From: a bacterium
GTDB lineage: Bacteria; UBA9089; JASEIO01
DNA length: 59,542 bases
Assembly: GCA_030017475.1 (NCBI GenBank)
Contig: JASEIO010000003.1
Coordinates: 1 to 59,542, forward strand
Direction: 5' to 3'
Numbering within the stretch: position 1 is the first letter of the stretch; every line of letters starts with the position of its first letter. The translations under genes and the position numbers were made by a program. Positions 1 to 58,281 of the stretch are shown here, one piece after another. Below the pieces are notes generated by a model that saw only the letters and a list, made by a program, of their open reading frames with translations, did no database searches and was not told where the DNA came from.

Positions 1-86
1 TAAATTTGAAAAACTTGCAATCAGATTAACCCCTTGATTTGTGCAACGGTGCCCCTAAGATGTGGGTAAGTTTCAGCAAAAAAAAC

Positions 87-40152: not shown

Positions 40153-40315
40153 TTAGTTCTTCCAGTTTTTCCAATTTCGCATCAATTAGGGATCTAAAAG
40201 CCAATAGGATCTCCTTTTTTGCCCTAAGCAGATGCCTTATTGCTTCATTAGAGAAAAGTTCTGAAATGGCATTGTATACTGGACAGCTACTCCATTCACT
40301 CTTTTTCTCTTTCAC
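40112..40315 (-). CDS. Small helical protein linked to ArsA/Get3 gene
   Basis: CPV...HLLRAKKEILLAFRSLID; GGAGGTG RBS; overlaps ATPase stop. Confidence 0.7.
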   Translation of the reverse strand: MKEKKSEWSSCPVYNAISELFSNEAIRHLLRAKKEILLAFRSLIDAKLEKLEELSEEKKKAEKIKVE

Positions 40316-41498
40316 CTATATCACCTCCAAATGTAATCCTTAATCTCTCATCTTCAAACTTGGCTGAATCTATCTTTCGATTGGCCAGTGTCTTAGGTAG
40401 TAAGATGTTTCTTCTTATATTCCCAATTCTAATGGTTAATTCGTCACCTTTTCTGTAAATGTCTATATCCTCCTTTTCTATAAAAGGGAGGCTTATCAAC
40501 ATAAGATACTCTGAATCCTTTTTCTTCACCTCAATCGGTCTTCCTTTATAGAGGATTTCTGTTGGATTGCTTTCTGTGTAAAGCAATTCCCCTAACTTAG
40601 TTAAGAGATTCAAACCAACTATCTCTTCTTGGAATAATTTTACTTGAAGGATAGGAAGGGGTGAAAAGATCTCTTTCACCTGATTCAGATATTTAGTTTG
40701 GAAGTCCTTCCATTTACTAAAGTATGATGCATCCATATCCTTTGGTAATATCTTATTGACTACAACCGCATCTACTGGAAGGTCAAATAGGTTGAAGTAG
40801 GTATAAGACATCTGCGCTTCATGGATAACCATCTTCTCAAGATTTAATACAATCCTAATGGATGAAGATTTTCTGTCAATTAAGATATCCCGCATCTTAC
40901 CTACATTCTGATAAAGGTCTTTTATGGATTCAAATACCGAATCCGAAGGCAAGGGATAGTTTATGGTTTTTTTGACTAACGGTCTTGCCACCTTTGCCAA
41001 CTTTCGCTCAATTGGAAATAACCTTTTCATATACCATTTGAAGACCTCTGGAAAAGATAGGAGGTGCAGGGTTGCTCCAGTTGGGGCGCAATCGATAATC
41101 GCTACATCATACTCTCCTGATTCATTCAAGGACTTTAATTCAATCAAATTAAGTAAATCCTCTATCCCTGGCAAAATGGCAATCTCTTCGGATATGACTG
41201 AATCAAAATCCCATTTTGTGAATAGCTCTCTTATGTAAGTCTGGATAGTACCCCAATTTTTATTTAGTACTTCCTGAACATCTACCTCTTTTGCAAATAG
41301 ATTATCCCGTAATTTCATAAGCTTGGCTCCAATATGCAGATCAAACGAGTCGGATAATGAATGGGCTCTGTCTGTTGATAAGATTATCGTCCGATAACCA
41401 AGCTTAGCACACTGTAAGGCAGTAGCACTTGCTATAGTTGTCTTTCCAACTCCACCTTTTCCAGTGAATAATATCACCCTCAATCTATTCTCCTCCAA
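40296..41498 (-). CDS. ArsA/TRC40/Get3-family ATPase with C-terminal HSP20-like domain
   Basis: GKGGVGKT, STDRAHS, DCAPTG, C-terminal ELTIRIG...RRNILLP...AKF. Confidence 0.9.
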   Translation of the reverse strand: MEENRLRVILFTGKGGVGKTTIASATALQCAKLGYRTIILSTDRAHSLSDSFDLHIGAKLMKLRDNLFAKEVDVQEVLNKNWGTIQTYIRELFTKWDFDSVISEEIAILPGIEDLLNLIELKSLNESGEYDVAIIDCAPTGATLHLLSFPEVFKWYMKRLFPIERKLAKVARPLVKKTINYPLPSDSVFESIKDLYQNVGKMRDILIDRKSSSIRIVLNLEKMVIHEAQMSYTYFNLFDLPVDAVVVNKILPKDMDASYFSKWKDFQTKYLNQVKEIFSPLPILQVKLFQEEIVGLNLLTKLGELLYTESNPTEILYKGRPIEVKKKDSEYLMLISLPFIEKEDIDIYRKGDELTIRIGNIRRNILLPKTLANRKIDSAKFEDERLRITFGGDIGEREKE

Positions 41499-41501
41499 GG
41501 A

Positions 41502-42656
41502 TTATCTGCTTATCCTTCTTTCAACAAGTATCTTCTTTAAAGATTTAACTGCACAGTCTATCTCTTCCTTTGTATTGAAATAGCCTAAACTGAATCGAAT
41601 CGTACCCCTGGGAAAGGTGCCAATTGTTTTGTGGGCAGAAGGTGCGCAGTGCAATCCAGTTCTTGTCATTATATCAAATGCCTGATCCAAAACATACCCT
41701 GCTTCATTTGATTCTAAACCATTAATATTAAAAGAGACAATCGATGTTTGTAATTCTGGGTCTTTTGGACCATAAATCGTTATTTCATCCATATCCTTTA
41801 ATGCTTTAAGTAGAAAACTGGTTAATTCTTTCTCGCGGTTCCTAATATTTTCTATTCCTTCTTCTAATATAAACCTCACTCCAGCCCCTAATCCTGCTAA
41901 CCCTACCGTATTATGCGTTCCTGATTCGTATTTATCAGGAAGAAAATCAGGGTGTACTTCAAGTTCAGAATTACTCCCAGTTCCACCTTGAGTTAGTGGT
42001 TCTATTTCAATCCCTTCTCTAATATATAAACCACCAGTTCCTTGAGGACCAAATAATGATTTATGGCCAGTAAAGGCCAATAGGTCAATACAGAAGTCCT
42101 CTACATTAATAGGAAGTACCCCTGCAGTTTGGGCAGCATCTACCATAAATAATATATTATACCTCTTAACTATTCTACCTACCTCTTTTATAGGTAAGAT
42201 AGTTCCTATTACATTTGATGCATGAGTGATGACCACCAATCTTGTATTATCCTTTATAGCCTTCTCTATCTCTTTTACATCCAATCTTCCATCCTCAGAA
42301 CACCATACTACTGTTATCTCAATCTTACCTTTTCCTTCCAAATATCTTAATGGCCTCATTACTGAGTTGTGTTCTAAAGAACTTGTAATTACATGATCTC
42401 CTTTTTTTAATAGCCCCTTTATTCCTAAATTAAGAGCCAAGGTTCCATTTGAGGTAAATATAATCTGGTTTGGCTTTTTAACCCCAAATAATTCACCTAT
42501 TAACTCTCTTGTATTGTAAACAATACGACCTGCCTCAATAGACATCTTATGCCCAGACCTACCTGGGTTGGCACACTTCCTCATACAACTCTCCATACTT
42601 TTATATACTATCTCAGGCTTCGGCCATGATGTAGAAGCATTATCAAAGTAGATCAT
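41502..42656 (-). CDS. Aminotransferase class V, cysteine desulfurase family
   Basis: YFDNASTS, EHNSV, DAAQTAG, TGHK, RTGLHCAP; probable ATG 42656. Confidence 0.92.
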   Translation of the reverse strand: MIYFDNASTSWPKPEIVYKSMESCMRKCANPGRSGHKMSIEAGRIVYNTRELIGELFGVKKPNQIIFTSNGTLALNLGIKGLLKKGDHVITSSLEHNSVMRPLRYLEGKGKIEITVVWCSEDGRLDVKEIEKAIKDNTRLVVITHASNVIGTILPIKEVGRIVKRYNILFMVDAAQTAGVLPINVEDFCIDLLAFTGHKSLFGPQGTGGLYIREGIEIEPLTQGGTGSNSELEVHPDFLPDKYESGTHNTVGLAGLGAGVRFILEEGIENIRNREKELTSFLLKALKDMDEITIYGPKDPELQTSIVSFNINGLESNEAGYVLDQAFDIMTRTGLHCAPSAHKTIGTFPRGTIRFSLGYFNTKEEIDCAVKSLKKILVERRISR

Positions 42657-42838
42657 AATCCACAACTTAGTGACTAAAAGGTATACCACCAAGACATGAA
42701 AAAGACTCCTAAGCTTCCTAATCCTTCTGAAGTTGCTCAGGAGTTTGACATTTCAAGAAGAGAACCTGCATAATGATTACAATAAGGTTATTTCTACTTT
42801 TGATCAAATTTAACCGCAAGTTTTCACACTAAAATGAA

Positions 42839-43810
42839 CTACCCCCCTATCTGAGACATACTCAGATTATGTCCAACCAATGGTAGATTGTTATACCTTA
42901 GCTGTTTATTTTTAATAGCTGTTACAAATAGATCTTTTATCCCTTCTGGTGTTGGATCATTCCGAAGTACAGGTTTTACATCCACTTCTGTATCAGACAA
43001 AAGACAAGGTCTCAATTTCCCATCTGAAGTTAGGCGCAGTCGGTTACAATTAGAACAAAAATTCACACTCACTGGACTGATAAAACCCAAAGTTCCGATA
43101 GCCCCATTTAGTTTATAATAGTGTGCTGGCCCAGAGCCAGGCACAGAATCTATAGAGAATAGCCCTTTTATCCTATTCTTAACCTCTGATATAGGAACAA
43201 ATCTGCGTTCATCCCATGTCCTGCTAATGGGCATAAATTCAATAAACCTTATATAATAGGGATTATTCATAGTGAGCTTTGCAAAATCCACTATTTCATC
43301 ATCGTTAACTCCCCTCATAATTACCACATTTATCTTTATCGGCTGCAAACCTACGTTTTGCGCCTCCTGAATTCCACCCCATACATCTTCTATCTTCCCG
43401 CCCCCAGTAATCTTCCAATATTTTTTCTTATTTAATGTATCTAAACTTATATTGACCCTTTTCAATCCTGCATGCTTTAGCTCTTTGGCATATTTTGAAA
43501 GTAAAGTACCATTTGTAGTCATACTTAAATCCGAAATATTATCTATTTCGCTCAACTTCCTTATTAAGCTTACGACATCCTTTCTGACCAAAGGCTCACC
43601 ACCAGTAATTCTAATTTTACATATCCCTATTTCAGTAGCATATTTCACTAACTGGATTATCTCTTCATAACTTAAAATTTCGGAATGGCTTACCCAATCT
43701 ACCACATCGGACGGCATACAATAGATGCACCTCAAGTTACATCTATCAGTAACAGATATCCTTAGGTAATCAATCTTACGATTGTATGAATCAATCAATC
43801 TACTTTTCAT
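42839..43810 (-). CDS. moaA: GTP 3',8-cyclase
   Basis: [17 protein letters not shown]...C, C-terminal IGG. Confidence 0.96.
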
Positions 43811-44000
43811 TCATATTTTCCTTCCTTTCTTCCTCAGGTTCTTCTATCTTTATCTCTTGTTTCAGTTCCTGTGTTGCCTTCTTGAATTCCCTTAATCCTC
43901 TTCCTAATGCCCTTCCTATATTTGGTAGATTCTTGGGACCAAACACAATCAGGGCAATAATTAAGATTACAATCAATTCAGGCATCCCAATTCCAAACAT
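43800..44000 (-). CDS. tatA: Twin-arginine translocase TatA/TatE
   Basis: GIGMPEL, FGPKNLP, G.GLREFK; GGAGG RBS. Confidence 0.93.
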
Positions 44001-44180: not shown

Positions 44181-44209
44181 TTGACAATACCATTATACCA
44201 TGATACAAT
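44181..44209 (+). promoter_or_regulatory. sigma70 promoter for the cassette locus
   Basis: TTGACA-17-TACAAT with extended TG; AGGAGGTG RBS at 44260-44267. Confidence 0.75.
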
Positions 44210-44276: not shown

Positions 44277-45665
44277 ATGTTTAGAAAGAAGGCAATTAAA
44301 GGGCTGATTTGCTTCCTGGCAATAGGAGTGTTTGCAAGCACAGGTTGGGCTATGGGCAAGAAGCCTGCCATGAACAAAGAGCAGGCAGTAGTGGATCAAC
44401 CTCAAGCAGATGTTAAAGAGAATCCAGAGGTGGCTGAGGTTGAAAGTCAAGCTGAGGCTAAGGTAACAGAGCAGAAAGGGACTCAGACCCCAGAGACTCA
44501 AGCTGTAGAACTAAAACCGATTATGGAGTATAAGCTTCCTGAAGGTGAGGAGATTGTGGATATTATCTTTGGTGAGGCAGAGATGACTGTAGAAGAAGCA
44601 AGGGCTTTAGGGATGAAGGGATTAGAGCAGAAGAAGGCAACCGAAACTGTGAAGGTGCAGTATCCGAAGGTATTAGTGACTAAGAATGCGGTTAAGTTTT
44701 TGGATGAGAGGGGGAGAATGGAAAGAGAGGTGTTGTTGAAAGAAGAAAATTATGAGAAGCCAATGGTGTCTTTGTTAACAAACAGAATAGTGGTTAAAGG
44801 TAAAAAGGGCGAGGGTGAAAATTGTAATGTTTACGCAAAATGGACAGACGAAAAAGGAAAATTAATAAAAATAGAAGAACACATCTTAGGTGAATTCGGT
44901 GGAGTTCTTATGTCTGAAAATGGAAAATATATTGCTATCGGACTTGGAGTGAAAGTGACAGAACCCGAAGTTGGTGAGTGCAAGTTGTATGATATAAATG
45001 GAAATAAATTATGGACATATGATATTGAATATCCATATCATGGTGGGATGGATATATTTAACGATGGTTCTGTTGTAATAGTGAGATCAGTTGAAGAAGG
45101 AGAAGGGATTAAAAAGGGGAAGATTGTTTTAATAGATGTAAATGGAGAGAAATTATGGGAAAACGAAATAGTTGATGGAACCCATAAAATTTTCTCTACA
45201 GCAGAAGGAAAAATAATAGTTTATACAAGAGAGTATCATTTTGCAGGTACACCTTTTGAAAAATTTACTTATATTCTATATGGATTCAATAAAAATGGCA
45301 ATTTGCTTTGGAAGCCTAAAGAATATAAAGGATTTAATAACTCATTTCATAAACTATCTGTATCTAAAAATGCAAACTACTTGACAGGACTTACCCTCTG
45401 GGATCATCTATGGGTAATGGATATAAATACTGGGGAATTTATATGGAAATATCCCTTGAAAGGATGGAAACCTGATACTTTAAAAATTTCCCCAGATGGT
45501 AAATATGTATTGTTGGGAAATGTGCTTTTGTTAGATGGAAAGAGCGGTAAGGTTTTAAAACGGATTAAGGAAGGAGGAAAATTCTTAGACAAAGACAAGC
45601 TTTGGAGAAGAAAAGGAGGTAAAATTGAGATATTCAATATCTCTGACATCTTAAAGGAAGATTAA
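44277..45665 (+). CDS. Secreted protein A1: conserved N-terminus + PQQ/WD-like beta-propeller
   Basis: Signal peptide ending GWA; repeated D.NG.KLW, SPDGKY blades; ATG 44277 after RBS (ORF track start 44181 is the -35 box). Confidence 0.8.
   Translation: MFRKKAIKGLICFLAIGVFASTGWAMGKKPAMNKEQAVVDQPQADVKENPEVAEVESQAEAKVTEQKGTQTPETQAVELKPIMEYKLPEGEEIVDIIFGEAEMTVEEARALGMKGLEQKKATETVKVQYPKVLVTKNAVKFLDERGRMEREVLLKEENYEKPMVSLLTNRIVVKGKKGEGENCNVYAKWTDEKGKLIKIEEHILGEFGGVLMSENGKYIAIGLGVKVTEPEVGECKLYDINGNKLWTYDIEYPYHGGMDIFNDGSVVIVRSVEEGEGIKKGKIVLIDVNGEKLWENEIVDGTHKIFSTAEGKIIVYTREYHFAGTPFEKFTYILYGFNKNGNLLWKPKEYKGFNNSFHKLSVSKNANYLTGLTLWDHLWVMDINTGEFIWKYPLKGWKPDTLKISPDGKYVLLGNVLLLDGKSGKVLKRIKEGGKFLDKDKLWRRKGGKIEIFNISDILKED
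44521..44672 (+). repeat. Direct repeat, copy 1 (copy 2 at 46306-46457)
   Basis: 152 nt with 7 mismatches by manual comparison; also a 52-nt identical block 44317-44368 / 46102-46153. Confidence 0.9.
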
Positions 45666-45666
45666 A

Positions 45667-45963
45667 ATGAAGAGAGCCTTGAGAAAGCGATTAACAACTT
45701 TAATAAGCCTCTTTTTCTATATAGGCTTAACAAGCACTGCTTATGCAGTAGTCTGGCCTAATGCACCTTCTGGCAAAACTTATCCCAACTATTTGGAGAG
45801 TGATTATGGGCCAAGAAAGGTGTATCAGTACTTCCATAAAGGCTTAGATTTTCCTGATGATAAAAACATCAAAGCTGTTGAGTCAGGAAAAGTTGAAGTA
45901 ATTGCTACAAGTAACTCGAAGTATCATTACGAAATTTGTGGGGGCACAATACTTAATGCTTGA
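45667..45963 (+). pseudogene. Truncated secreted M23 peptidase N-terminus
   Basis: Signal peptide, WP, SDYGPR, FHKGLDF, KAVESGKV, then stop with no HxH motif. Confidence 0.7.
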
Positions 45964-46061
45964 CAAAAAGGATGGAGATGTGAGAGGATATGAACATGGC
46001 TCGAAAAATAGGTATTGTATCCACAATTAGAAGAAAAATTTTAAAAATTGAGGTGATAAAA

Positions 46062-47150
46062 ATGTTTAAGCAAAAAGCAATTAAAGGGTTAATTTGCCTT
46101 GTGGCAATAGGAGTGTTTGCAAGCACAGGTTGGGCTATGGGCAAGAAGCCTGCTGAGAGTGAGCAGTTGTTAGTGAGCAGTGAGCAGAAGGAGATTGAGT
46201 CAACAGGGGTTCAGCCAGAGGGTGAGAGTAAACCAGCTAAGGTTGAGGTGGCAGAGCAGAAAGGGACTCAAACCTCAGAGGCTCAAGCCATAGAGCCAAA
46301 GCCAGTTATGGAGTATAAGCTTCCTGAAGGTGAGGAGATTGTGGATGTTATCTTTGGTGAGGCAGAGATGACTGTAGAAGAAGCAATGGCTTTAGGGATA
46401 AAAGGCTTAGAGCAGAAGAAGGCAACCGAAACCGTGAAGGTGCAGTATCCAAAGGTAATAACGATCAAAGACATGAATATTAAAGGTGATGTATCTATAA
46501 AATCGATTAGATTCTTGAATGAAAAAGGAGAGATGAAGAGCGAATATCAAGTTAAAGGACAAAGAGAATGGACGGGTGTTATGGTTTCCAAGAATAAGAA
46601 GTACCTTAATGTCCATTCTATTATCAATTATGAAAAAGAAGAAGCAGAATCTATAATGTTGAATGACGAGGGAAAAGTGTTATGGAGTGTTAAGCATAAT
46701 CTCTTTGAAGTCTATCCATCACCAAATGGCAAGTATTTGGTTGGACTTCCTACTATTGAGTGGAGTGATGCCCCAATATATGTTTATAATGAAAAAGGAT
46801 TGGTTAGGGAAATAAAGAAGGATGATCTATCTTGTAGGTTAAGCTTTTCTAAAGATGGAAGTTATTTTGCTGTAACTTTAACTACAAGAATTGAAGGTGA
46901 AGATAGAGCAGATTTAATAGTATTTGATGGAGAAGGAAATGAACTTTGGAGAAAGAATGGTATAACAAGAGGAATTGCCGCAGATTATTGCCCAATAAAT
47001 ATTACAGATGATGACATAATCACGGTAATGACAGGTGGAGATGAATATAAGATATATCATTTTGATAAGAAAGGCAATTTGGTTAAAGAAGAACAAGGTA
47101 ATTTAGAATTACTTAGGCAATTCAACCCAGATTATTCAAGAGCAAGGTAA
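46062..47150 (+). CDS. Secreted protein A2: paralogous N-terminus + different beta-propeller-like region
   Basis: N-terminus nearly identical to A1; SPNGKY, FSKDGSY, DGEGNELW; ATG 46062 after GAGGTG. Confidence 0.8.
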   Translation: MFKQKAIKGLICLVAIGVFASTGWAMGKKPAESEQLLVSSEQKEIESTGVQPEGESKPAKVEVAEQKGTQTSEAQAIEPKPVMEYKLPEGEEIVDVIFGEAEMTVEEAMALGIKGLEQKKATETVKVQYPKVITIKDMNIKGDVSIKSIRFLNEKGEMKSEYQVKGQREWTGVMVSKNKKYLNVHSIINYEKEEAESIMLNDEGKVLWSVKHNLFEVYPSPNGKYLVGLPTIEWSDAPIYVYNEKGLVREIKKDDLSCRLSFSKDGSYFAVTLTTRIEGEDRADLIVFDGEGNELWRKNGITRGIAADYCPINITDDDIITVMTGGDEYKIYHFDKKGNLVKEEQGNLELLRQFNPDYSRAR

Positions 47151-47196
47151 TGTAGAGATGCTTTGGCAATCTAAAAAATAGTAGGAATAAGAAAAA

Positions 47197-50100
47197 ATGC
47201 TAAGAAAGACCTTTAATCTCTTCATTTTAAGTTCGTTGTTTATTCTATCTCCAATTATAGCATCAGGTTATCAATGGCCTGTTGATTCTTTCGATAAACA
47301 ACATCCAATCAATGCTACATTAGGAGAGTACAGATCTAAGTTTCATAACGGTGTAGATATAGGTAGGTTTCATAGAGGTGTAGATATAGGAGAACCTGAA
47401 AAAACCAATGTATATCCTGTTGTTAGTGGGACAGTAGCTAAGATAGTATATAGAGGAAAGAACTCTTATGTCACAGTTGAAGATGGAAATAGAAAGATTG
47501 ATTATGTCCATATAAATCCAAATCCATCAATACGAGTAAATCAGTCTGTAACAGCGGGTGAGACTGTTCTTGGTACAATAAATGATCTAAACCACCTCCA
47601 CTTTCAAGAAGATGAGGGGGCAGTAAACCCTCTTCGCCCTGGAGGACTTACTCCATTCACTGATAAGGGTGAACCAAAAGTTAAGAAAGTGGAAGTAGTG
47701 AAGGATAGTACTCCTGATGCTCCTGATGCTGGGAAACCATTTCCAACAGATAGTAATGGTATTCCTATTGTATCTGGTAATGTTGATATTAAAGTATGGG
47801 CCTATGATCCAAGGGTTAATGCAGATGGGACTCCTGGTGAAAGGGGTGGTATGGGGATATATAGAATTGGATATGAGGTCAGAAAAGAATCTGATGGTAC
47901 TCTTGTTGAAGGACCAACATATAGGATTCAATTCGATACCATCTCCTCTGATTATAAGGTGAAGTATGTTTATGATCCAAAATCAAGTTATATACCTGTT
48001 AATTTTATCTACTTGGCAACAAATTACCCTAATTCTAATGGCTACTGGAATACAGAAAGACTTGAAGACGGAAGGTATAAGGTTAAGAGTTTAGTGGAAG
48101 ATATTAAAGGCAGGAGTGCTGAGAAAGGGATCACAGTGATCATCGACCTCACCCCACCCAAGGTAAAGGAGAGCACCACTGGAAATAATGCTCAGGATGT
48201 TCCTTTAGATAGTACCATTGAGATTACCTTAGAAGACCCAAAGAAGAACGACTATTCCTCAGGGATTGATCCTAAGTCCCTAAAGCCAGAGGAATGTAAG
48301 ATTGATCCCAAAATCGATGGTACCTGGAAGATCAAGGGAGAAGGATTTATCTTTATTCCTAATGAACGCCTAAAAGAAGAGACCACCTACAAAGTCACCA
48401 TCCCCAAGGAGGCAGCTAAGGATAAGGCTGGTAATGAATTAGAGAGCCACATTTTCACATTCAAGAGTGGCTGGTTTGGGGCAAAGGCGTTAACGACATC
48501 TTATCAGAAAGTGTATCCTAGAGAAACTGTAACTCATGTTATTGCTATCAGCAACCATTTAGGAAAGAATGAGGATTTTGAGCTTGTTGTAAAAAATCCA
48601 TCAGGCATGGGGTGGTCCTGGGGCTTTGGTAGTCCTGGTGGAGGAGAACGGATAGAGGTTAATGCCCCATATGATCCATCGAATGATAAGTACAAAGATG
48701 ATGATGCTACAGTATGTTTTATGGCCAAGGCCCCTCGTGTACCATGTACGAGTGTCTTCACGGCTCAGATCTTTATTCAGATAAAGGATAAACCAGAGAC
48801 AGAAAGAGAAGTAGTATACCTTGGAGACATAACCCAGGGTGAACGCATTAATGACCATCCGGATGACAACTACGAGATCTCTGATCCACAGTATCCAACC
48901 AATATGTACATCTCCAGTAAGGCCGATGTTGCTATGTTGTTAAGGGGATACTCAGATGGCATGGGCCATCTACTCGGAAGATGGAAGATACCAGTTTCTC
49001 TCATCTTAGATGATCTTACCCCTATCTTTAGAGAGAAAAGAACCCTTTCAGATTACCCCGTACTGATCATACCTACCCTGGGCCTATCAGGCATCTCAAA
49101 CTCACCTACCACCAAGGCAAAACTTGAAGAATACGTCAAGAATGGAGGAACGATAATCTGTTTCACCCAGCAGCATGGGTATGACTTCGAGGCCCTGCCC
49201 AGGGGAGATGAACTCAAAGGGTATGGCTGGAGTGAAGATCAGTCATGCTGGCGTGGTTCGGTATCCATCTCTACCCCTCATCCAGTCTTTGCTGGTCAGG
49301 ATACCCAAATCCTTGACATAGTCACTGATGGCTACTTTGACAGATGGCCAGATGATTCGACTATTCTCTTGAGACGAACAAAGAATGATATGCCGGCTAT
49401 GCTGATGTATCCTTATGGAAAGGGAATAGTTATAGTTTCTGGCTTCTATGAGGACTGGGCCTATGGAAATTCCCAATCAACCAAGGATGGAAGAAATCTG
49501 GTAAGAGATCTTGTTACCTTTGCCAAAGATCCAGATAAGCATATCCCAGAGTATAGGGGTGAAGAAAAGATCAATGAGCAATTAACAATTAGAAATGATC
49601 AATTGACAATTGCAGAAAGAATAAAGGTTAGGGTGTATGATCCGGACAAAAACGAGCTTGTATCTTACAACCAAGAACTTACAACCCCATTAGAGGCCGG
49701 AGAGTCAATCACCATTCCATTTGACTATACTGCCCCTCAAAGCCTTGGTATCTATGAGGTAACCTATATCCTTCTTGATAGAGACGATGAGGAGATTCAG
49801 GAGGAAGAGGTAGGACTGAGGTTTGGGGTAAGTCTTGGCCTTGTGGGAGTGGCCAAGAAGGACCTTTCAATTAACATTACTTCAGATGGAGATGAAGTCA
49901 GAGTCAAAGGGACACCAGCCACCTTTACTATCACTGTGAGGAATAATAGTGATGAAATAAGGAAGGTTACCCTCAACTGGCATAGTCATGCAGGAGGGGG
50001 TTCGATTGGAACATATACTGTTTTACCTAAATCGAGCATCTCTATTCCTTACACCACGGACCGTATCTACTTTTACTGGCAGGGTCCAAGGTGGGAGTTC

Positions 50101-53100
50101 TACATATATTGTCCTGAGGCCGGCACTAGGTGGATTGGTTTAGCGGGAATATGTGTAGAACCTTTGGTTTATGTCTCTCTTTTAACTGATAAATATGAGT
50201 ATCAAAGGGGAGAGGATTTGGAATTGGATGTTTTGGTTAAAAATCTAATGTCAAATCCACAAAACGTCAATCTGAAGATCAATATAGTTGATCTGAATTG
50301 GGAAGATTGGAAGGAGGAGAGAACCCTTGAAGTGGATCTTGGCTCAGAAGAATCTGTAAGAGAGAAGCTTATATTCCAGGTTCCAGAATACCTCTATGGG
50401 GGGATATATAAGGTTAAGGCAGAGGCCTATGTAGATCAAGTACTTCTATATGAGGCTATGACCACCTTCAAGGTTACACCCTTATTGCTAAGCCTTGAGT
50501 CGAAAATCAAAGAAGCTTATGCTTGGGGTAATGATGCAAACCTCGATTTTATTATTAAGAATGATGGAGATATAGACAGGGAGGTTACCCTGAGTGGTTT
50601 CTTCTCTTGTTATTATCAACCATTTGAGAAAACTCTATTTATCCCGGCCGGTGGCGAGGTATCTTACACCCATATTATAGAAACAGTTTGGTGTGGATCA
50701 ACACTCACTGCCTCTCTTTATACTGAGAAGGGAGTAAAGATTGAACAAATAGATAAGTGGTTTGATGTTTATAAAGTGGTTCCAAGGAGTACTCTCTCCA
50801 CAAACAAAAAGAGGTATCTTCGTGGAGAGGAGGTAAAGATTACCTTGGACATTCAAGATAGTCATAAGATTGACTATCCGGCCCGGGTGAAGGTTGTTAT
50901 GGGTAATGGGTTATGGGTTATAGGTGATGAGGAAGTAGAGATCATCGATGGGAAGGCAACCAAGGAATTTACATACATCATTCCAAAGGATGCTGAGAGG
51001 GGATACTATAATATAAAGGCTTATGTCTACTATCAGGAGGAAATGATAGGTTATGGTACTACTTCCTTTTATGTTCTAAAGCCTAAACTTGCGGTTAAGC
51101 CGAGTCTACCAGATGTCTTCACAGTTAAGGGTTCACAGTTGACGGTTGCCAGTGGAGAAAGGGTAAATCCTGTGGATTTTGAAATAGAGAATGTAGGTCC
51201 TATTGATGTGATAGATGGGAAATTAGAAGTAAGTTTAGAGTGTAGAGTTGAGAGTTTAGAGGAAGGAGAAGATGGGGCAGGGAGCAGGGGGCAGGAGGAA
51301 GAGGGAGAAGAGGTGTGGAGGGATGAGAGGGAGTTTGGGAAACTGAAGGCAGGATATGGAGAGGAGCAAGGAGAGAAGACTACCCTTGAGTTTGATATTC
51401 CTATTGAAGAGGTCAGGTTTGGGACTTATGTGCTTAAATATGTCTTGAAATATGAGACTGAAGAGATAAAGGGGGAAGAAGAGATAGTTTCAAAGGTTAC
51501 CATCAAGGAGTTTAAGCTTGACAAAACCTCATACAAGGTTAGAGATGAAATGAAAATAGAGCTTGAGGTGATTAACGCCGGAGGATTCGAAGAGAGATTT
51601 AAGGTAGGGCTAACATCCGCAAGTCTTAAGCCAATAGCCCTTGAGGACCAGGAACTTATCTTACTGCCAGGTGAGAGCAAGATACTGAATTATGCGACCA
51701 CCATAATAGAGGATATAGAACCTGGGGTGCATGAAGTAGAAGTAGTTATAAGTCATCAGGGGAGTGGAAGTCTTGGAGATGGCTCATCCAATCAAGGGAG
51801 TGGAAGTTTGGGAGAAGATGAGATAATAAAGAAGTTTAGTTTTGTGGTATCGGCTTCACGATTAGAGGCCTATCTGGATAAGAAGTATTACTCTTGTGGA
51901 AAGGGTGGGAGTATTAAGATTACCAACGCAGGTGGGGTGGATACGAACTACTCCTACAATCTCAGGTTGGTAGATTGGAATGGACTTGTTTTCTTTGAGG
52001 AAGCTGGAAGTGGTAGCATAAAAGCAGGTGATGGGTTATTGGTGATGGATGGTGGGAAAATAGGGTTTATGATACCGGAGCAGTTGGTGAGTGGTGGGTA
52101 CAATCTTATGTTGGAGCTTAAGGATGAAAAGAAGAATGAAGGGATAAAGAGATTGTTTTACATCAATGTAAATGGTTTACAGGCCAGGGTTACTCCAAAG
52201 ACAGAGGAGAAGATCTACTTCTATGGGGACCAGGTCAATGCCTCTACGCTGATTGAGAAATTGGGCCTTCCCATAAATGGGGCAAGCCTCAAGATAAGGG
52301 CCTATGCCTCTGGGGGTGAGTGGACCCACTATCCAGACATCAGGGATGTCAATGCCATTGTGGCAGATGGGGACTATGTCTTGTTTGGAACAGCTGGTTA
52401 TGGGGTAAGAAGATATAACAAGAAGAATGATACATGGGATCTCTTTGATACTTCAAACTCAGGGCTCTTGGATGATAATGTTCTCTTAATTGGGGTCGAT
52501 ACCCACTATCTCTGGTTTGTCACATCAAGAGGGGTCTCAAGGTGTGATAAGACTATGAATAATTGGGAGAACTTCACCAAGGAAGAGATAGGACTAAGCT
52601 TCTTCGACTCTATCCAAAGCATAGCCATAGATAATGACTACGTATGGTTTGGTGGTGACTATCCTGGACTGATCAGATATAGTAAGGGTAATGGAGAATG
52701 GATGCACTGGAGCCTGGATGAGATTGGAGATAAGATAGGGATAGAGGGCCTGATTATAAATAGCATGGTCGTTGATGATGGAATCCTCTATATGGGTACT
52801 AGTGAATGGTGTGGCTCTCAGGACTATCTTATCAAGTTAGAGACAGAAACCGAGACCTTGAGTGTTATAAAAGAGATGAGTGTCCTTGCCCTCTCTCAGG
52901 ACTCTGACTGCCTCTGGATTGGATGGAATAATATCTTAACCGGATACAATAAGCAGACCGGTGAATTCAAGGACTATGAGATCCCCTATTCCCCAGAATA
53001 TTATTGGGATGGAGTAAGTGATGGGACAATCTCTGTAGCCTCTCTTTGTGTGGATGAATATAAGGTCTACTTAGGCTCAGATAAGGGAGGGGTCTATATC

Positions 53101-56100
53101 TTTGATAAAGAGAGAAAAACCTGGGAGGAGCTTGTCTCTGAGATTGGTAGTCCACAAAGTGTCTTGGCCATAGCAGCAGATGAAGACTATGTCTGGTTTG
53201 CCGGAAGAGATACGTTGACACGCTTTGATCGGGGTTATCGCTTCCAGGGGGAAAAGGTCAGCTATGGTGAGTGCATATCTATGATCGATGCCGGAGACCG
53301 GCTCATAATCCTTCCCTATGATACTTCAAGACTCATCTTCTATGACAAGGCTACCGGTTATACAGAAGAGATTAACATCCCATTAGGCACTCATTCCTCT
53401 GAGTCATCGATGGCCCTTGATGGGGACTGCGTCTGGATAGTCGGGAAGCATAACGATGTTATCTTACGGTATGATATGACAAATGATCACTTTGATGAGT
53501 GGATGCTCAATTGGTTGGTTGATGATGTCTTTGCCCTGGATGGTGACTATGTCTGGTTCAGACTTGAAGGAGGTAAAGGCATCCAGGCCATAAGGTATGA
53601 CAAGATAAATGATGACCTAAGGCTCTACAAGGACGTTCCTGACTACTTAGACTTCAAAAAGAGATACTACTATGATAAGGAGCTTGGAGATTGGGTAGAC
53701 TCGCACCTTGAGATAAACAAGGTCTATCCCGAGCTAAGTGATCTATACAAGTATATAGAAAAGTTTATAGATGAATTCGAGTATCTTAAGAACGTGGCCG
53801 TTTGTGGGGATTATGTCTGGTTTAGTGGAGGTAGTGGTCTAATCAGATATGATAAGGCCGCTGATTCATGGAGATACTTTGATCTTGACATTGAGACTGG
53901 CAAGATATGGGCAAATGATGGAGTCATCTATATCGATTGTAATGGCCTCTACAGGTATGATCCAACAACTACAGAACTCTCTAAACTCTTAAATCTAAGT
54001 AGTGAAGTAACCTTCCTCCTCTTTGATGATAAAGACCTCTGGCTTGGAACGAATGGAGAGGGATTGTGGCACTATGAAGGCGGTTCATGGACTCAGTTTA
54101 CCGAGGAGAATACTGATGGTGGACTGTTGAGCAATCGTCTTTTTGCCGGCTGCCTCGATGGAAGCTACATCTGGTTGGACTGTGGTACCATAACACGATA
54201 CGATAAGGCCGCTGGTGAGTGGAAGAGTTATAGGGAAGACTGGTTTGATAGTATCACTTCCATCTTAGCCGATCAAGTATTCCTATGGATTGGTGGAAGA
54301 GGAGGATTATTCAAGATGAAGAAGGTAGGAGAGATACTCTTTGATGAGACTATCCAGGTTAATGTGGGGAGTGATGTTACCACAAACCATCTTTTAGGGA
54401 TCTTAGATACTTTAGGTAAGGTCTACATAGATGCGGTGCTTACATCATCCAAGGGTCAATTAATTGACCATGGTCAGAATACATTCTACATCATCAATAC
54501 CTCAACCTCTCTTTCATTTGAGACAGATAAGCCCATCTATAAACCGTACGAGACAGTCACCATAACAGGTAAGATCCATAATGCCGCCCAGATACCCACC
54601 AATCCCTTGAAACTCAAGTTGAGAAAGAAGGATAAAGAGGTCATCTATCAGGAGGAGAATATCGTTCTCCAGCCATATGAAACAAGGCAGTTTACCACCA
54701 CAACCACGGCAGATAAGTCATTTGTCTTAGAGGGATCGATCGGTGATCTTAAGCTAACCGACTTTGTGGAGGTAGCAAAACCAGAGCTTGAAGTGACGAT
54801 AGATGCACAAGAGGTGGTTTCAAGAGATGAGTTTACTCCCTTGATCATTCTTAAGAATACGGGGAAGGTGGAATTGCAAATTGAAAATTGCATATTGAAG
54901 ATTGCAAAGGCTGAGGATGGAGAAGAATTAACTGTCTACTGTCTATTGTCTACTGTATACTGCCTAAGGCCTGGTGAAACAAAGATATTTGAGCAACCAC
55001 TTCAAATCCATGAGGATGTTATCCTGAGTGTAGAGGTGAGTGGGGATGTAAGAAAGACCGTAGCCAAACAGATAGGGTTTGGGGAGAAGGTAACCATTGG
55101 GGTTACACCCGAGGAGATCTATCCTATCGGGATTATAGAGGTGCCATTTGTCATCACTAACGGTGGGAGCCTGGATTCAAAGCTTGAGGTTGTCTTTGTT
55201 CTGGAGAAGACTGAAAAGGAAAATGGAGCAGGGAGCAGGGAACAGGAGGCAGATGGCAGAGGAGAGAGTGTATCGGGCAGGAGTCAGAAGGTAGAAAGGG
55301 TGATTGGTGGGAAGATGGTTTATGGTCCATGGTTGATAGTCCATGGCCAGAAGGAAGGATATAACAGAGAAAGGAGAATGATCAGGGAGCAGTTGCAAGG
55401 ATTGTGTTGGATAATACCACAGATAAGGATCAGTAAGCAGCAGGAAGAGGGAAGCAGGCAGAGGGAAAAGGAGAAGGAAGCGCAGAGTGTTACTACCAAC
55501 CAGTTAACATCTACCAGTTACCAGTTAAGCAGTTACAAAGACAGCGTGGAGTTGGTAAAGACCTTCTATATACCGGCTGGTGAGAAGATAGCGGGGGATC
55601 TTGTCTTTAATCTGAATGAGGGAGACTATAAGCTCTTGTTTACCTCAGAACTTTCCTCTGGCGCAACATACTTCAAGGTTGCAAAAGACGGTATAGTAGA
55701 AATAAATAAGTTAGAAGTGGGAAGTGGGAAGTTAGAGGCTAATAAACTGCCTACAGATGTTATGGTTAAGAATCTTGGAGGAAATAACTTTGTTGGGGTC
55801 CTGAGGCTTGATGCGGGATTTTATGAAGAAGAAAGCCAGATAGAATTAGAGAGTGCCCAGGAAGAGACTTACAGATTCGGAATTCCCCTTGAGGCAAGTT
55901 CCGGGGAGTACACAGCCAGGGCAGAGGTTCTACATGACGGCTGGGTGATAGCCGAGAAGGAACAGAGGTTTAAACTGGAGCCTTGGTTTGAAATAACCGG
56001 AATCTGGGGGAAGTCTGGTGAGGCAGGTGGTAGTGGGATTAGTTTTGATGTAGGAGAGGAAGGGAGATTTAAATTTGCTGTAAAGAATACGGGAACGGCA

Positions 56101-58281
56101 GAGGGGAAGGTCATTCTCCACCTGAAGTTCCTTGACCTTGTGGATGAAGAGAAGGAGGTCTGGCTTGGAGTGGGCCAGACAGAAGAGGTGGAGTTCTCTT
56201 TTGAGGTGCCGGATGATTTGGAGGATAAGGACCACATAGCAGTACTCAGTAGTCAGTGGTCAGTAGTCAGTGGGATAAAAGAGATAGAAGAAGAGATACA
56301 GGTGCATATAAATGGAATAAAGATTGGGGTGGAGGCAGAGCTGGATAAGCCATTCTATCAAGAGGGGGATACGGCCGTCCTGACCCTCAAGGTCACAAAT
56401 CTCACCTCCTTATCCCTGGCGATGTACACCAAGATCAATTTCAATGATTATCAGGAGCGTCAGGACTTTGAGCTTGGACCCATGGATGGTTCACAATCCA
56501 CAGTAGAGCTACAATTCAACATCCCGATCCAGTTCACAGGCCAGAAGATCGGGTATGGGGTCTACATGTCCTCTGGAAGGAGTATCTATCTTAACTCGAT
56601 GTATGTCAGAAAGAAAGGGGAGATAATAACACTCTGGACAGATAAGGAAGTCTATGGGGCCGGGGAAGAGGTAATCATCAATTATCAATTATCAATGAGC
56701 AATGAAGAATTGGCCACTGGCAATTATCAATTGTCAATCGATGGAGAGGAAGTAGTTGAGCCGTTTACCATACCTTTAACCGAGAATGAGGGGACAACCA
56801 GTTTCATCTTGCCTAAGGAGCTAAACAGCGGAACCTATATCATAAACTATGAGCTAACAGAAGGTTCTCAACAGCTTGAAAAGGGAGAGTACCGATTTGA
56901 TGTTATTGGTTATGAGGTGATAATCATAAAGGCGACTCTGGATAAACAGGTCTACAACTCTGGGGATGAACTGAATCTTGATCTTACCATCAAATCGAAT
57001 AGTGACCTGGATATCCTGGTCAGGGCCTGGATCTACAACCCGGAGGGTGGGTATGAGGACTTCTTCAACAAGGGAGCTATTCTTTCCTGTGGCAGGACAA
57101 GACACAGAATCAACGGCGAGATTACCGATACCATGCCAGGTGTTCATTTGCTGGTCTATGCGATCTATTCAGGTAATAATGAATGGTTGCTCCTTGCCGC
57201 AGGGAGCGAGAGCTTTGATCTGAACACCCCGGATACTATCAACACCGATTTTTCTGCCACCCCAGACTCGGGCGAGGTGGATGATAAATTCCCAAGGGCG
57301 ACCATCGTCCGACCCAATCCAGGAGATAGAGTTTCAGGAGATGCAGTCCTTATAAAAGTGGTAAGTGAAGATAAAGATATTGTGAACATAAACTTTCAGT
57401 ATAGATTGAGTAATCAAGGTGCATGGACAGATATTGTTAGCAGCATAGATACAGGATCGATATACTCTGTAACCTGGGATACTACTTGGCTGACAGAAGG
57501 TAGCTATGATTTAAGGGCAGTCGCAGAAGATGCTATGGGCAATGTGGATACAGATCCTCCATATATTACTGTTATTGTCGATCATCCAAATGCTGATTAT
57601 TCTGAATATGGAGTGAAAATGGCCAAAGATAATGTAATTGAAAATGGTGATGGGATCAGGGTCAAGATACCGGCTGGGGTTCTAACCAAAGATACTATCA
57701 TAAAAATCTCAAAACCAGATCCGGCTGATATTCCACCAAACAAGGATAAACCCACCGGGTTGTTTCTTGAGATTACCCTTGAGAGTGGCCAGGAACACCT
57801 AAATGGGTACATCTTCATTTCAATGCCATATCTGGACAACGATAATAATGGCCTGGTCGATGGCACAGACATCTTAGAGGAGAATCTAAAGGTTAATATC
57901 TACAGAGACACAGGCTGGAAAAGGCTGCCAACAACTATAGATGCTATAGATAATATCGCTACCGGCAAAACAGACCACCTCGGTAGCTTCGGATTATTTG
58001 GATCTCTCACCTCTGATCTTGATAATGTGCTGGTCTTTCCCAATCCATTCAGGCCTGGAAAGGGTGAAACCATCAGGTTCTTGAATCTGACCGAGAATGT
58101 GATCATAAGAATCTATAATGTGGCTGGCGAACTCATCAGGTACAAAGAGGATATAACAGACCATTGGAAATGGGATGGAAGAAACGACCATGGCCAACCA
58201 GTGGCAACCGGCGGCTATATCTATATCATCACCGATGATAATGGAAGAAAGAAGATAGGAAAGATTGCGGTTGTTTGGTAA
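47197..58281 (+). CDS. Giant secreted protein (3694 aa): M23 peptidase, Ig-like domains, GATase-like domain, beta-propellers, FlgD/T9SS-type C-terminal domain
   Basis: Signal peptide; HxxxD (twice), YVH and HLH; D..PP.V...KDKAGN Ig; YVWF/DxLW blades; VFPNPF...IYNVAGELI...WDGRN...G.Y.Y CTD. Confidence 0.85.
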   Translation: MLRKTFNLFILSSLFILSPIIASGYQWPVDSFDKQHPINATLGEYRSKFHNGVDIGRFHRGVDIGEPEKTNVYPVVSGTVAKIVYRGKNSYVTVEDGNRKIDYVHINPNPSIRVNQSVTAGETVLGTINDLNHLHFQEDEGAVNPLRPGGLTPFTDKGEPKVKKVEVVKDSTPDAPDAGKPFPTDSNGIPIVSGNVDIKVWAYDPRVNADGTPGERGGMGIYRIGYEVRKESDGTLVEGPTYRIQFDTISSDYKVKYVYDPKSSYIPVNFIYLATNYPNSNGYWNTERLEDGRYKVKSLVEDIKGRSAEKGITVIIDLTPPKVKESTTGNNAQDVPLDSTIEITLEDPKKNDYSSGIDPKSLKPEECKIDPKIDGTWKIKGEGFIFIPNERLKEETTYKVTIPKEAAKDKAGNELESHIFTFKSGWFGAKALTTSYQKVYPRETVTHVIAISNHLGKNEDFELVVKNPSGMGWSWGFGSPGGGERIEVNAPYDPSNDKYKDDDATVCFMAKAPRVPCTSVFTAQIFIQIKDKPETEREVVYLGDITQGERINDHPDDNYEISDPQYPTNMYISSKADVAMLLRGYSDGMGHLLGRWKIPVSLILDDLTPIFREKRTLSDYPVLIIPTLGLSGISNSPTTKAKLEEYVKNGGTIICFTQQHGYDFEALPRGDELKGYGWSEDQSCWRGSVSISTPHPVFAGQDTQILDIVTDGYFDRWPDDSTILLRRTKNDMPAMLMYPYGKGIVIVSGFYEDWAYGNSQSTKDGRNLVRDLVTFAKDPDKHIPEYRGEEKINEQLTIRNDQLTIAERIKVRVYDPDKNELVSYNQELTTPLEAGESITIPFDYTAPQSLGIYEVTYILLDRDDEEIQEEEVGLRFGVSLGLVGVAKKDLSINITSDGDEVRVKGTPATFTITVRNNSDEIRKVTLNWHSHAGGGSIGTYTVLPKSSISIPYTTDRIYFYWQGPRWEFYIYCPEAGTRWIGLAGICVEPLVYVSLLTDKYEYQRGEDLELDVLVKNLMSNPQNVNLKINIVDLNWEDWKEERTLEVDLGSEESVREKLIFQVPEYLYGGIYKVKAEAYVDQVLLYEAMTTFKVTPLLLSLESKIKEAYAWGNDANLDFIIKNDGDIDREVTLSGFFSCYYQPFEKTLFIPAGGEVSYTHIIETVWCGSTLTASLYTEKGVKIEQIDKWFDVYKVVPRSTLSTNKKRYLRGEEVKITLDIQDSHKIDYPARVKVVMGNGLWVIGDEEVEIIDGKATKEFTYIIPKDAERGYYNIKAYVYYQEEMIGYGTTSFYVLKPKLAVKPSLPDVFTVKGSQLTVASGERVNPVDFEIENVGPIDVIDGKLEVSLECRVESLEEGEDGAGSRGQEEEGEEVWRDEREFGKLKAGYGEEQGEKTTLEFDIPIEEVRFGTYVLKYVLKYETEEIKGEEEIVSKVTIKEFKLDKTSYKVRDEMKIELEVINAGGFEERFKVGLTSASLKPIALEDQELILLPGESKILNYATTIIEDIEPGVHEVEVVISHQGSGSLGDGSSNQGSGSLGEDEIIKKFSFVVSASRLEAYLDKKYYSCGKGGSIKITNAGGVDTNYSYNLRLVDWNGLVFFEEAGSGSIKAGDGLLVMDGGKIGFMIPEQLVSGGYNLMLELKDEKKNEGIKRLFYINVNGLQARVTPKTEEKIYFYGDQVNASTLIEKLGLPINGASLKIRAYASGGEWTHYPDIRDVNAIVADGDYVLFGTAGYGVRRYNKKNDTWDLFDTSNSGLLDDNVLLIGVDTHYLWFVTSRGVSRCDKTMNNWENFTKEEIGLSFFDSIQSIAIDNDYVWFGGDYPGLIRYSKGNGEWMHWSLDEIGDKIGIEGLIINSMVVDDGILYMGTSEWCGSQDYLIKLETETETLSVIKEMSVLALSQDSDCLWIGWNNILTGYNKQTGEFKDYEIPYSPEYYWDGVSDGTISVASLCVDEYKVYLGSDKGGVYIFDKERKTWEELVSEIGSPQSVLAIAADEDYVWFAGRDTLTRFDRGYRFQGEKVSYGECISMIDAGDRLIILPYDTSRLIFYDKATGYTEEINIPLGTHSSESSMALDGDCVWIVGKHNDVILRYDMTNDHFDEWMLNWLVDDVFALDGDYVWFRLEGGKGIQAIRYDKINDDLRLYKDVPDYLDFKKRYYYDKELGDWVDSHLEINKVYPELSDLYKYIEKFIDEFEYLKNVAVCGDYVWFSGGSGLIRYDKAADSWRYFDLDIETGKIWANDGVIYIDCNGLYRYDPTTTELSKLLNLSSEVTFLLFDDKDLWLGTNGEGLWHYEGGSWTQFTEENTDGGLLSNRLFAGCLDGSYIWLDCGTITRYDKAAGEWKSYREDWFDSITSILADQVFLWIGGRGGLFKMKKVGEILFDETIQVNVGSDVTTNHLLGILDTLGKVYIDAVLTSSKGQLIDHGQNTFYIINTSTSLSFETDKPIYKPYETVTITGKIHNAAQIPTNPLKLKLRKKDKEVIYQEENIVLQPYETRQFTTTTTADKSFVLEGSIGDLKLTDFVEVAKPELEVTIDAQEVVSRDEFTPLIILKNTGKVELQIENCILKIAKAEDGEELTVYCLLSTVYCLRPGETKIFEQPLQIHEDVILSVEVSGDVRKTVAKQIGFGEKVTIGVTPEEIYPIGIIEVPFVITNGGSLDSKLEVVFVLEKTEKENGAGSREQEADGRGESVSGRSQKVERVIGGKMVYGPWLIVHGQKEGYNRERRMIREQLQGLCWIIPQIRISKQQEEGSRQREKEKEAQSVTTNQLTSTSYQLSSYKDSVELVKTFYIPAGEKIAGDLVFNLNEGDYKLLFTSELSSGATYFKVAKDGIVEINKLEVGSGKLEANKLPTDVMVKNLGGNNFVGVLRLDAGFYEEESQIELESAQEETYRFGIPLEASSGEYTARAEVLHDGWVIAEKEQRFKLEPWFEITGIWGKSGEAGGSGISFDVGEEGRFKFAVKNTGTAEGKVILHLKFLDLVDEEKEVWLGVGQTEEVEFSFEVPDDLEDKDHIAVLSSQWSVVSGIKEIEEEIQVHINGIKIGVEAELDKPFYQEGDTAVLTLKVTNLTSLSLAMYTKINFNDYQERQDFELGPMDGSQSTVELQFNIPIQFTGQKIGYGVYMSSGRSIYLNSMYVRKKGEIITLWTDKEVYGAGEEVIINYQLSMSNEELATGNYQLSIDGEEVVEPFTIPLTENEGTTSFILPKELNSGTYIINYELTEGSQQLEKGEYRFDVIGYEVIIIKATLDKQVYNSGDELNLDLTIKSNSDLDILVRAWIYNPEGGYEDFFNKGAILSCGRTRHRINGEITDTMPGVHLLVYAIYSGNNEWLLLAAGSESFDLNTPDTINTDFSATPDSGEVDDKFPRATIVRPNPGDRVSGDAVLIKVVSEDKDIVNINFQYRLSNQGAWTDIVSSIDTGSIYSVTWDTTWLTEGSYDLRAVAEDAMGNVDTDPPYITVIVDHPNADYSEYGVKMAKDNVIENGDGIRVKIPAGVLTKDTIIKISKPDPADIPPNKDKPTGLFLEITLESGQEHLNGYIFISMPYLDNDNNGLVDGTDILEENLKVNIYRDTGWKRLPTTIDAIDNIATGKTDHLGSFGLFGSLTSDLDNVLVFPNPFRPGKGETIRFLNLTENVIIRIYNVAGELIRYKEDITDHWKWDGRNDHGQPVATGGYIYIITDDNGRKKIGKIAVVW
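49571..56740 (+). repeat. At least 14 separate in-frame degenerate heptamer tracts within the giant gene
   Basis: Tracts start at 49571, 50896, 51119, 51232, 51274, 52028, 54872, 54931, 55225, 55315, 55499, 55708, 56240, 56678. Confidence 0.85.

Follow-up and report, generated by a model that had tools for sequence, protein, structure and literature searches.

The window examined here covers positions 1 to 59,542 of contig JASEIO010000003.1 (59,542 nucleotides [nt], forward strand) of a bacterial assembly (GenBank GCA_030017475.1; GTDB lineage UBA9089, JASEIO01) that comprises 1.64 Mb in 111 contigs and is called G000 among the genomes compared. It almost certainly carries one apparent operon of two tandem modules, in each of which the gene for a Sec-exported beta-propeller protein (protein A; A1 and A2) is followed by a cargo gene headed by a peptidase domain of family M23. 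We are nearly certain that module 2 (class II) is whole and that its M23 head, with intact catalytic residues, forms the N-terminal tip of a giant 3,694-residue protein that ends in a type IX secretion system (T9SS) sorting tail; it is just as secure that module 1 (class I) has kept a full A1 gene and only 98 codons of its head. The stretch running from the propeller through the head (44676 or 46461 to ~48144) is probably an exchangeable cassette. As the best explanation of the whole, modules that exchange cassettes and in which A is the partner of the head are a reading on which our judgment is evenly poised.

By sequence, motif, and fold, the head of the giant protein is a member of peptidase family M23, and it is predicted to cut peptidoglycan. 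Its AlphaFold2 model (predicted local distance difference test [pLDDT] 94.2) consists of an M23 domain and a beta-sandwich; the best Foldseek matches are the M23 hydrolases StM23, LytU, LytM, and lysostaphin, and the fold neighbors also include ShyA, Csd3, and EnvC. The profile of the head-family alignment (A3) matches solved M23 chains, with a best E value of 1.1e-15. Residues E44, H59, D63, H105, H133, and H135 are invariant in 61 aligned sequences of the family, the last five of which are assigned zinc-binding or catalytic roles by analogy with LytM. A 27-nt tandem duplication (window 47337-47390) doubles the H-x3-D zinc motif (FHNGVDIG/FHRGVDIG), and the invariant H59 and D63 align with its second copy. 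The head family has 973 representatives at E ≤0.001, in which the domain is mostly N-terminal in proteins of 200 to 4,216 residues. Homology of the head to its class II relatives ends at residues 289 to 325, before a D-x-T-P-P motif (residue 317) that closes the head in five other giants too, so that the head/body boundary placed near 48140 by an earlier sequence-only reading of this DNA stands.

The first head is a remnant. The sequence-only reading had each A gene followed by a different signal peptide and M23 N terminus; both are present, the first of them being the truncated 98-codon stub. This stub is 57% identical to residues 3 to 84 of the giant protein of genome G018, 63% identical to that of G023, and 43% identical to residues 1 to 90 of that of G020, and it is recognized by the hidden Markov model (HMM) of the head family (E 1e-4), with no match to the Pfam M23 model. 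Its DNA homology to the class I loci ends at 45894-45913; stopping at codon 98, it lacks the second half of the M23 domain and hence has an incomplete catalytic domain. The A1 homologues in G018, G023, and G020 are 61%, 46%, and 65% identical to A1 (the last over residues 1 to 462), and they are followed by giants of 3,182 residues, at least 2,089 residues (the contig ends inside the gene), and 3,101 residues, respectively.

Protein A consists of a signal peptide (signal peptides are here hydrophobic N termini read from the sequence), an acidic linker that is disordered in the model, an anchor domain of ~55 residues (KP.MEYK...QYPKV), and a beta-propeller. A1 matches Pfam PQQ_2 (PF13360; 34.3 bits versus a cut-off of 27.6), and A2 has no family match in Pfam or NCBIfam. 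In the AlphaFold2 model of A2 (mean pLDDT 79.6), residues 1 to 75 are disordered and residues 80 to 358 are all-beta, mostly above 90; fold and atlas searches (Foldseek, Atlas) return generic propellers only. The BamB equivalog model scores 17.3 bits on A versus a cut-off of 285; A is thus a propeller, but not a BamB orthologue. No lipobox was seen in A by eye. The family is rare, with 29 proteins among 5.8 billion, none of them meaningfully named. The anchor domain is present in 12 of 25 genomes of the phylum, and a more distant form of it is found in loci labeled candidate division WOR-3.

The 5' end of the A genes has relationships of its own. The first 30 nt of A1 are those of the A gene of G002, which belongs to another propeller class and another family (window 44277-44330 compared with L023 and L022); the signal-peptide block has a proportion of synonymous differences of 0.19 relative to G002 and G022a, and the promoter and ribosome-binding region upstream of A is common to several relatives. 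A secretin gene (PF00263, 127 bits) lies upstream of the class II A gene in G015. Its in-frame leader and signal peptide are similar to the ones of the A gene in G020 (L025 10835-12229 and L019 10772-10874, both on the minus strand), so that the 5' block is also found on an unrelated gene.

The pairing of A with an M23 gene is general among loci that carry the anchor domain, which were gathered from relatives, from genome contigs (9 loci, several overlapping the relatives), and from metagenome contigs (7, one a duplicate). An M23-like gene follows at -3 to +128 nt in 20 of 23 anchor-bearing open reading frames (ORFs) from 21 sources, 17 being found by the head HMM and 3 (L020, L021, and L023) by Pfam M23, where two of the three score below the Pfam cut-off; the stop and start codons overlap in several pairs. 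With a further pair in L018 the total is 21 of 24, as had been expected of other anchor copies. Two of the misses have little sequence downstream (1 nt in L053 and 315 nt in L048), and the third, L041, is taken up below. The more alike two propellers are, the more alike are their heads (Mantel r 0.73, p 2e-4, a p value that overstates the case because the compared genomes are kin and adjacent genes co-vary by linkage). The underlying measures were normalized BLASTP scores, one set for the propeller parts and one for the first 330 residues of the downstream proteins, with 5,000 permutations over 18 pairs; the set excluded the short heads of L051 and L052, the Ac gene of G022, L018, and three partnerless loci. 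At least four classes can be distinguished: class I (A1 and the stub of the window, G020, G018, G023), class II (A2 and the giant of the window, G015, G016, contig C557 of G022), class III (G022a, G002), and class IV (G004, L044, L045, L046, L049), with G001 and L047 each standing alone outside them.

Within the window, A1 and A2 share two repeated anchor blocks at an offset of 1785 nt, and these are the only two anchor copies in the whole assembly, which thus has no dispersed set of them. Block 1 is identical at 82 of 92 positions and includes a mismatch-free run of 52 nt (44317-44368), whereas the 81 nt separating the blocks agree at 24 positions only; block 2 is identical at 203 of 226 positions, and similarity ends abruptly at its edge, with 32 of 100 nt identical past QYPKV (44676-44775). 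The 52-nt block and the break after QYPKV had both been seen by eye, and so had a 152-nt block (44524-44675), which is located as described but contains 8 mismatches (144 of 152 identical) instead of 7. By contrast, the C termini are not largely unalignable, as had been claimed: BLASTP joins the two proteins (42% over 365 residues, E 2e-65), and the C-terminal parts, 24% identical over 198 aligned codons, are diverged homologous propellers. The synonymous divergence (dS) between A1 and A2 is 0.14 over 51 anchor codons versus 2.17 over the 198 aligned C-terminal codons, and in 15 other pairs, chosen by the analyst, the anchor dS ranges from 0.42 to saturation. The anchor domain is conserved by selection. 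Because of the difference in dS between anchor and downstream part, and because no relative is more than 87% identical to the window anchors at the DNA level, the comparison indicates that the A1 and A2 anchors were homogenized by what would be recent gene conversion. The anchor had been proposed as a constant recombination flank; it would be more than that, since the same DNA also encodes a protein domain that is conserved across the phylum.

These data bear on a simpler history, namely plain tandem duplication with divergence, decay of one copy, and an anchor held constant by purifying selection without any exchange. It would fit the preservation of the anchor at the protein level in all classes and genomes (two G022 paralogues have anchors 84% identical with saturated dS), as well as the homology of the two propellers. 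We regard it as very improbable, given the contrast in dS within one genome, the greater distance of A1 and the stub from A2 and its head than from homologues belonging to other families, and two observations described next, the discordance of heads and bodies and the class I head piece that contig C3 carries on the window body.

Head class and body type disagree in three comparisons among eight giants with at least 896 residues of body. The body of G020, with a class I head, is 56 to 57% identical over 79 to 99% of its length to the body of G022:C557, which has a class II head, and 53 to 54% identical to that of G015; that of G023 (class I) shares 53% identity with the gb body on G022:C457 (class III); and the window body, under its class II head, matches only G018 (class I; 29 to 30% over 46 to 47%) and no class II body. 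A further joint is seen in contig C3 of the same assembly, a single open frame of 737 nt. Its first 161 residues are 55% identical to residues 148 to 302 of the G018 giant, the class I region just past the M23 domain, and its last 399 nt correspond to window 48065-48454 (85% overall, ~95% in the last 240 nt), with a terminal 55 nt that are identical to the window and equal to the k-mer overlap of the assembly; no other contig of this assembly overlaps the body. On C3, therefore, a class I head runs into the window body, which would belong to a co-assembled strain or to a second copy that was collapsed. Measured against the same homologues, the stub and C3 are diverged to a similar degree; they lie ~63 codons apart, and we infer that they may be joined by a contig of ~290 nt that fell below the 500-nt floor of the assembly. 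Taken with the tracking of head by propeller, the three discordances and the C3 joint favor the exchangeable unit that the sequence-only reading had proposed, the 3' part of gene A plus the 5' part of the giant gene.

Displaced cassettes are not confined to the window. On G022:C457, the order is an A-like gene of 430 residues, a 56-residue head stub (head HMM positions 1 to 45, E 9.5e-10), a second A gene, a truncated head of 295 residues, a third A gene, and a full M23 protein of 1,246 residues. The 295-residue head is 84% identical to residues 1 to 296 of a G002 protein, which continues to the D-x-T-P-P motif; the intact counterpart of the first pair is found in G019, as that of the 295-residue head is in G002. 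Thus all three displaced cassettes, which come from two genomes, combine a complete A with a truncated head. On the same contig, a divergent XRE-type helix-turn-helix gene (HTH_3, 62 and 59 bits) and a strong promoter precede each downstream cassette (XRE regions L022 2215-2654 and 5009-5338, the first also preceded by ~100 nt of short C-rich tandem repeat).

Could the tandem arrangement be an assembly artefact that joins two strains? The assembly holds many strain-variant contigs (84 to 96% identical), contig overlaps of 55 nt are its rule and match its k-mer overlap, and C3 shows a second form of the locus. We nevertheless consider an artefact extremely unlikely: the longest exact repeat between the modules is 52 nt, less than the 55-nt overlap, the junction between stub and A2 lies outside the repeated sequence, and the independent assembly of G022:C457 shows the same architecture twice.

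The variable parts had been described as more AT-rich than the anchor and than the giant gene after ~48140, and the composition bears this out. GC content is 0.33 in the variable parts of A1 and A2 (GC at third codon positions [GC3] 0.25 to 0.28), 0.375 in the head (GC3 0.24), 0.46 to 0.47 in the anchors (GC3 0.44 to 0.47), and 0.436 in the body after 48140 (GC3 0.455). The genome has a GC content of 0.377 and an open-frame GC3 of 0.324 (standard deviation 0.045; 5th to 95th percentile, 0.266 to 0.39), based on 752 stop-to-stop open frames of at least 300 codons in six frames with gene calls not checked. The variable part of A2 (GC3 0.25) and the head are below the 5th percentile, and that of A1 (0.28) is just above it. 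A foreign origin of the AT-rich parts was rejected, as it is the anchors and the body, not the variable parts, that exceed the 95th percentile. Anchor GC3 (0.36 to 0.48) is higher than variable-part GC3 (0.22 to 0.35) in 14 of 14 homologues examined, and body GC3 is higher than head GC3 in the window and in five of five relatives. GC-biased conversion at the recombining flanks would explain the high GC3 of anchors and bodies.

The giant protein has both marks of a T9SS cargo, an N-terminal signal peptide and a type A C-terminal sorting domain, and its gene adjoins one for a PorV/PorQ-family barrel, in agreement with the T9SS-like export route suggested earlier. At least 14 ORFs of the genome bear such tails. 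The search for machinery covered the PorV/PorQ, SprA, and PorU models; an SprA-like ORF of 1,748 residues scored 80.2 bits versus a cut-off of 200, and the PorU model was matched only through the tail-like ends of 17 ORFs. On contig C77, a second tail-bearing ORF (at least 1,329 residues) has two M23 domains and is followed by a PorV-like gene; part of this ORF recurs as a 90% variant on contig C2 (737 nt).

Cassette exchange could proceed as follows. The left-hand site of recombination would be the anchor, and the right-hand site the body's first Ig-like module; the incoming cassette would settle before the body and displace its predecessor upstream, which would lose part of its head but keep a full A gene, and the anchors of A1 and A2 would be homogenized afterwards by gene conversion. 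That A is a periplasmic, class-specific binding partner of the head, either an inhibitor or an immunity protein, is a tentative proposal that we place a little short of even. Such a partner would shield the producer from the wall-cutting enzyme for as long as the folded cargo awaits export, and a retained A1 would protect against the class I heads of neighbors. A complex prediction for head residues 24 to 330 with A2 residues 76 to 362, made from alignments and without controls, scored 0.01 and is neither support nor counter-evidence.

A different function for A fits the pairing and co-variation equally well. A might be an export helper, a class-specific periplasmic chaperone or docking adaptor, whose propeller holds the folded head and whose anchor passes the cargo on to a constant partner, for example the translocon or the PorV/PorQ-family barrel. 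An anchor domain kept in every class suits a constant partner, and one apparent operon holds A, the cargo gene, and the PorV/PorQ-family gene. Yet A is full length in all three displaced cassettes, where a chaperone without its client should decay (although a recent origin could explain this), and no known T9SS component resembles A; we hold the export role to be unlikely, if less so than the next alternative. The head might instead act on the wall of the producer itself, opening the mesh for a large folded cargo, with A timing or restraining it and the classes being old paralogues. M23 enzymes and LytM factors commonly remodel their own cell's wall (ShyA, Csd3, and EnvC are among the nearest folds), the head, by sequence order, enters the periplasm ahead of the rest of the cargo, and the ORF on C77 combines two M23 domains with a T9SS tail and a PorV-like neighbor. 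Such housekeeping does not predict at least four divergent classes, body swapping, or accumulating remnants, and the many head-family proteins of only 200 to 800 residues would need no such help, which makes this explanation quite improbable in our view.

Several points weigh against the reading of A as a partner of an exchangeable wall-cutting head. Linkage and kinship alone could yield the co-variation of propeller and head. In L041 (5911-7208), A is split into ORFs of 177 and 229 residues and is followed by DUF4872, with no M23; the gene may be in decay. In all three full-length class I heads (L019, L020, and L021), H-x-D stands in place of the M23 H-x-H motif, so that, to judge from the motif, the class I head may not be a working peptidase. 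C3 comes from an assembly with strain-variant contigs, and it has no physical link to the stub, ~189 nt being missing between the two. Among the T9SS components searched, SprA was found only below its cut-off and PorU not as such. The fold and atlas searches gave no similarity of A to any known inhibitor, only generic propellers, and the best-conserved part of A is the anchor, whose role the inhibitor model leaves unexplained. Finally, a surface-displayed M23 enzyme is not obviously able to reach the wall of a neighbor that has an outer membrane, which weakens protection from neighbors as a function.

The features of the locus and its surroundings are collected in Table 1. The promoter-like site upstream of A1 is a consensus match only; the spacer between stub and A2 was considered as a separate promoter region and dropped, since the same scan gave no good site there. 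The upstream neighbors (window 39280-44000, minus strand) are housekeeping genes, and no helix-turn-helix regulator, of the kind found in G022, lies upstream of A1, the small ORF there being TatA. A dispersed repeat of ~55 to 80 nt, found at the ends of more than 30 contigs of G000 (e.g., C1 698-752), is carried at window 1-53 and seems to fragment the assembly; C101 89-141 matches window 53-1.

Table 1. Features of the two-module locus and its neighbors in the window
Feature	Position	Strand	Remarks
ArsA-type ATPase	40296-41498	-	Upstream neighbor
Class V aminotransferase	41502-42692	-	Upstream neighbor
MoaA-like radical SAM protein	42839-43810	-	Named by eye from translation
TatA	43800-44000	-	Upstream neighbor
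Promoter-like site, TTGACA-17-TACAAT with TG	44181..44209	+	Upstream of A1; 11/12 in consensus scan
A1, 462 residues: signal peptide, acidic linker, anchor domain ending QYPKV, class I beta-propeller	44277..45665	+	ORF, intact
Anchor block 1, signal-peptide coding	44277..44368	+	Repeated at 46062-46153
Anchor block 2, linker end and conserved domain	44450..44675	+	Repeated at 46235-46460
Stub of class I M23 head, 98 codons: signal peptide and HxxxD, without H-x-H	45667..45963	+	ORF, 2 nt after A1
A2, 362 residues: signal peptide, linker, anchor domain, class II beta-propeller	46062..47150	+	ORF
Giant gene, 3,694 residues	47197..58281	+	ORF
Class II head of giant: signal peptide, M23 domain, beta-sandwich domain	47197..48144	+	Ends just before D-x-T-P-P
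M23 peptidase domain: H59-x3-D63, H105, H133-x-H135	47365..47628	+	PF01551, 34.2 bits versus cut-off 28.7, residues 57-144
Body of the giant: Big_5, MG2/Ig-like modules, propeller-like repeats, T9SS tail	48145..58281	+	Pfam
T9SS type A C-terminal sorting domain	58033..58266	+	TIGR04183, 30.8 bits versus cut-off 23; 29.1 bits in second scan
PorV/PorQ-family outer-membrane barrel gene, 317 residues	58275..59228	+	NF033709, 174.6 bits versus cut-off 90; 7-nt overlap with end of giant gene

In known polymorphic toxin systems, the variable toxin region is C-terminal and the immunity gene lies downstream. From genes alone, the present locus shows the marks of such systems, namely a swapped variable end, a co-varying adjacent gene, and displaced modules. 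Contact-dependent growth inhibition (CDI) and Rhs loci carry orphan modules that consist of a displaced, truncated piece of the enzyme and an intact partner gene (PMC9086364). As in CdiA-CT/CdiI and Rhs, a constant part is combined here with a variable enzymatic end, the neighboring gene co-varies, and old modules are displaced, here three cassettes in two genomes (PMC9086364). Unlike in those systems, the variable end is N-terminal, the partner gene is upstream and has a constant domain of its own, the remnants pile up upstream, keeping their start codons and losing their 3' parts, and export is predicted to proceed by the T9SS and not by a type V or type VI secretion system (T6SS).

As one precedent for an inhibitory role of A, the potempins of Tannerella forsythia are encoded directly upstream of the secreted KLIKK peptidases, inhibit them, and protect the envelope of the producer (PMC9890683). 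The upstream position is common to both systems, with inhibition by A being putative. The potempins are described in that account as outer-membrane lipoprotein beta-barrels of 98 to 132 residues (PMC9890683), whereas A is a propeller protein of 362 to 462 residues with a plain signal peptide and no lipobox seen by eye; in size and fold, A is not an inhibitor of the potempin type. The KLIKK peptidases are not M23 enzymes or heads of giant proteins, and the abstract of that account mentions no swapping of cassettes (PMC9890683). Another precedent is the wall hydrolase Tse1, whose inhibitor Tsi1 is a partial beta-propeller in the periplasm (PMC3391265). The combination of a periplasmic, propeller-like, all-beta protein with a peptidoglycan hydrolase is the same here, where neutralization is putative, but Tsi1 is small and forms only part of a propeller, Tse1 is an amidase that the T6SS delivers, and neither has a sequence relationship to A or the head.

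Two comparisons concern large T9SS proteins. The TANFOR toxins of Bacteroidetes are secreted proteins of large size whose toxin ends are exchangeable and whose immunity genes lie alongside, and they have been proposed as T9SS substrates (PMC7073777). They have a constant N-terminal domain, C-terminal nuclease toxins, and downstream immunity genes, unlike the present system, with its T9SS tail and its variable enzyme at the N terminus. The outer-membrane partner gene also has a parallel. The gene of the giant surface protein SprB, which uses the T9SS, adjoins that of a dedicated PorP-like outer-membrane partner, SprF; SprB is not known to have an M23 head or an upstream propeller gene. The giant gene of the window likewise adjoins the gene of an outer-membrane partner, which, unlike SprF, belongs to the PorV/PorQ family.

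A search of the literature for such a system found no description in full text, supplementary files not being covered. The export signal of T9SS cargo is C-terminal, and a T9SS version of a polymorphic toxin must therefore be built in reverse; the locus shows what such a version looks like, displaced remnants included. We regard the system as a variant of polymorphic effector-partner systems in a WOR-3-like uncultured lineage. In its fullest form, as a mirror-image effector system in which M23 heads tip giant T9SS fibers, are matched to upstream periplasmic propeller immunity proteins, are swapped as cassettes with the old ones stored upstream, and serve small-genome WOR-3-like bacteria to attack or feed on neighbors, the proposal is possible but doubtful. 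Should the propeller prove to be a class-specific inhibitor, it would represent a new type of inhibitor for M23 peptidases, would give the T9SS a role in interbacterial conflict or in feeding on dead cells, and would provide a readable record of past cassette replacement in uncultured lineages.

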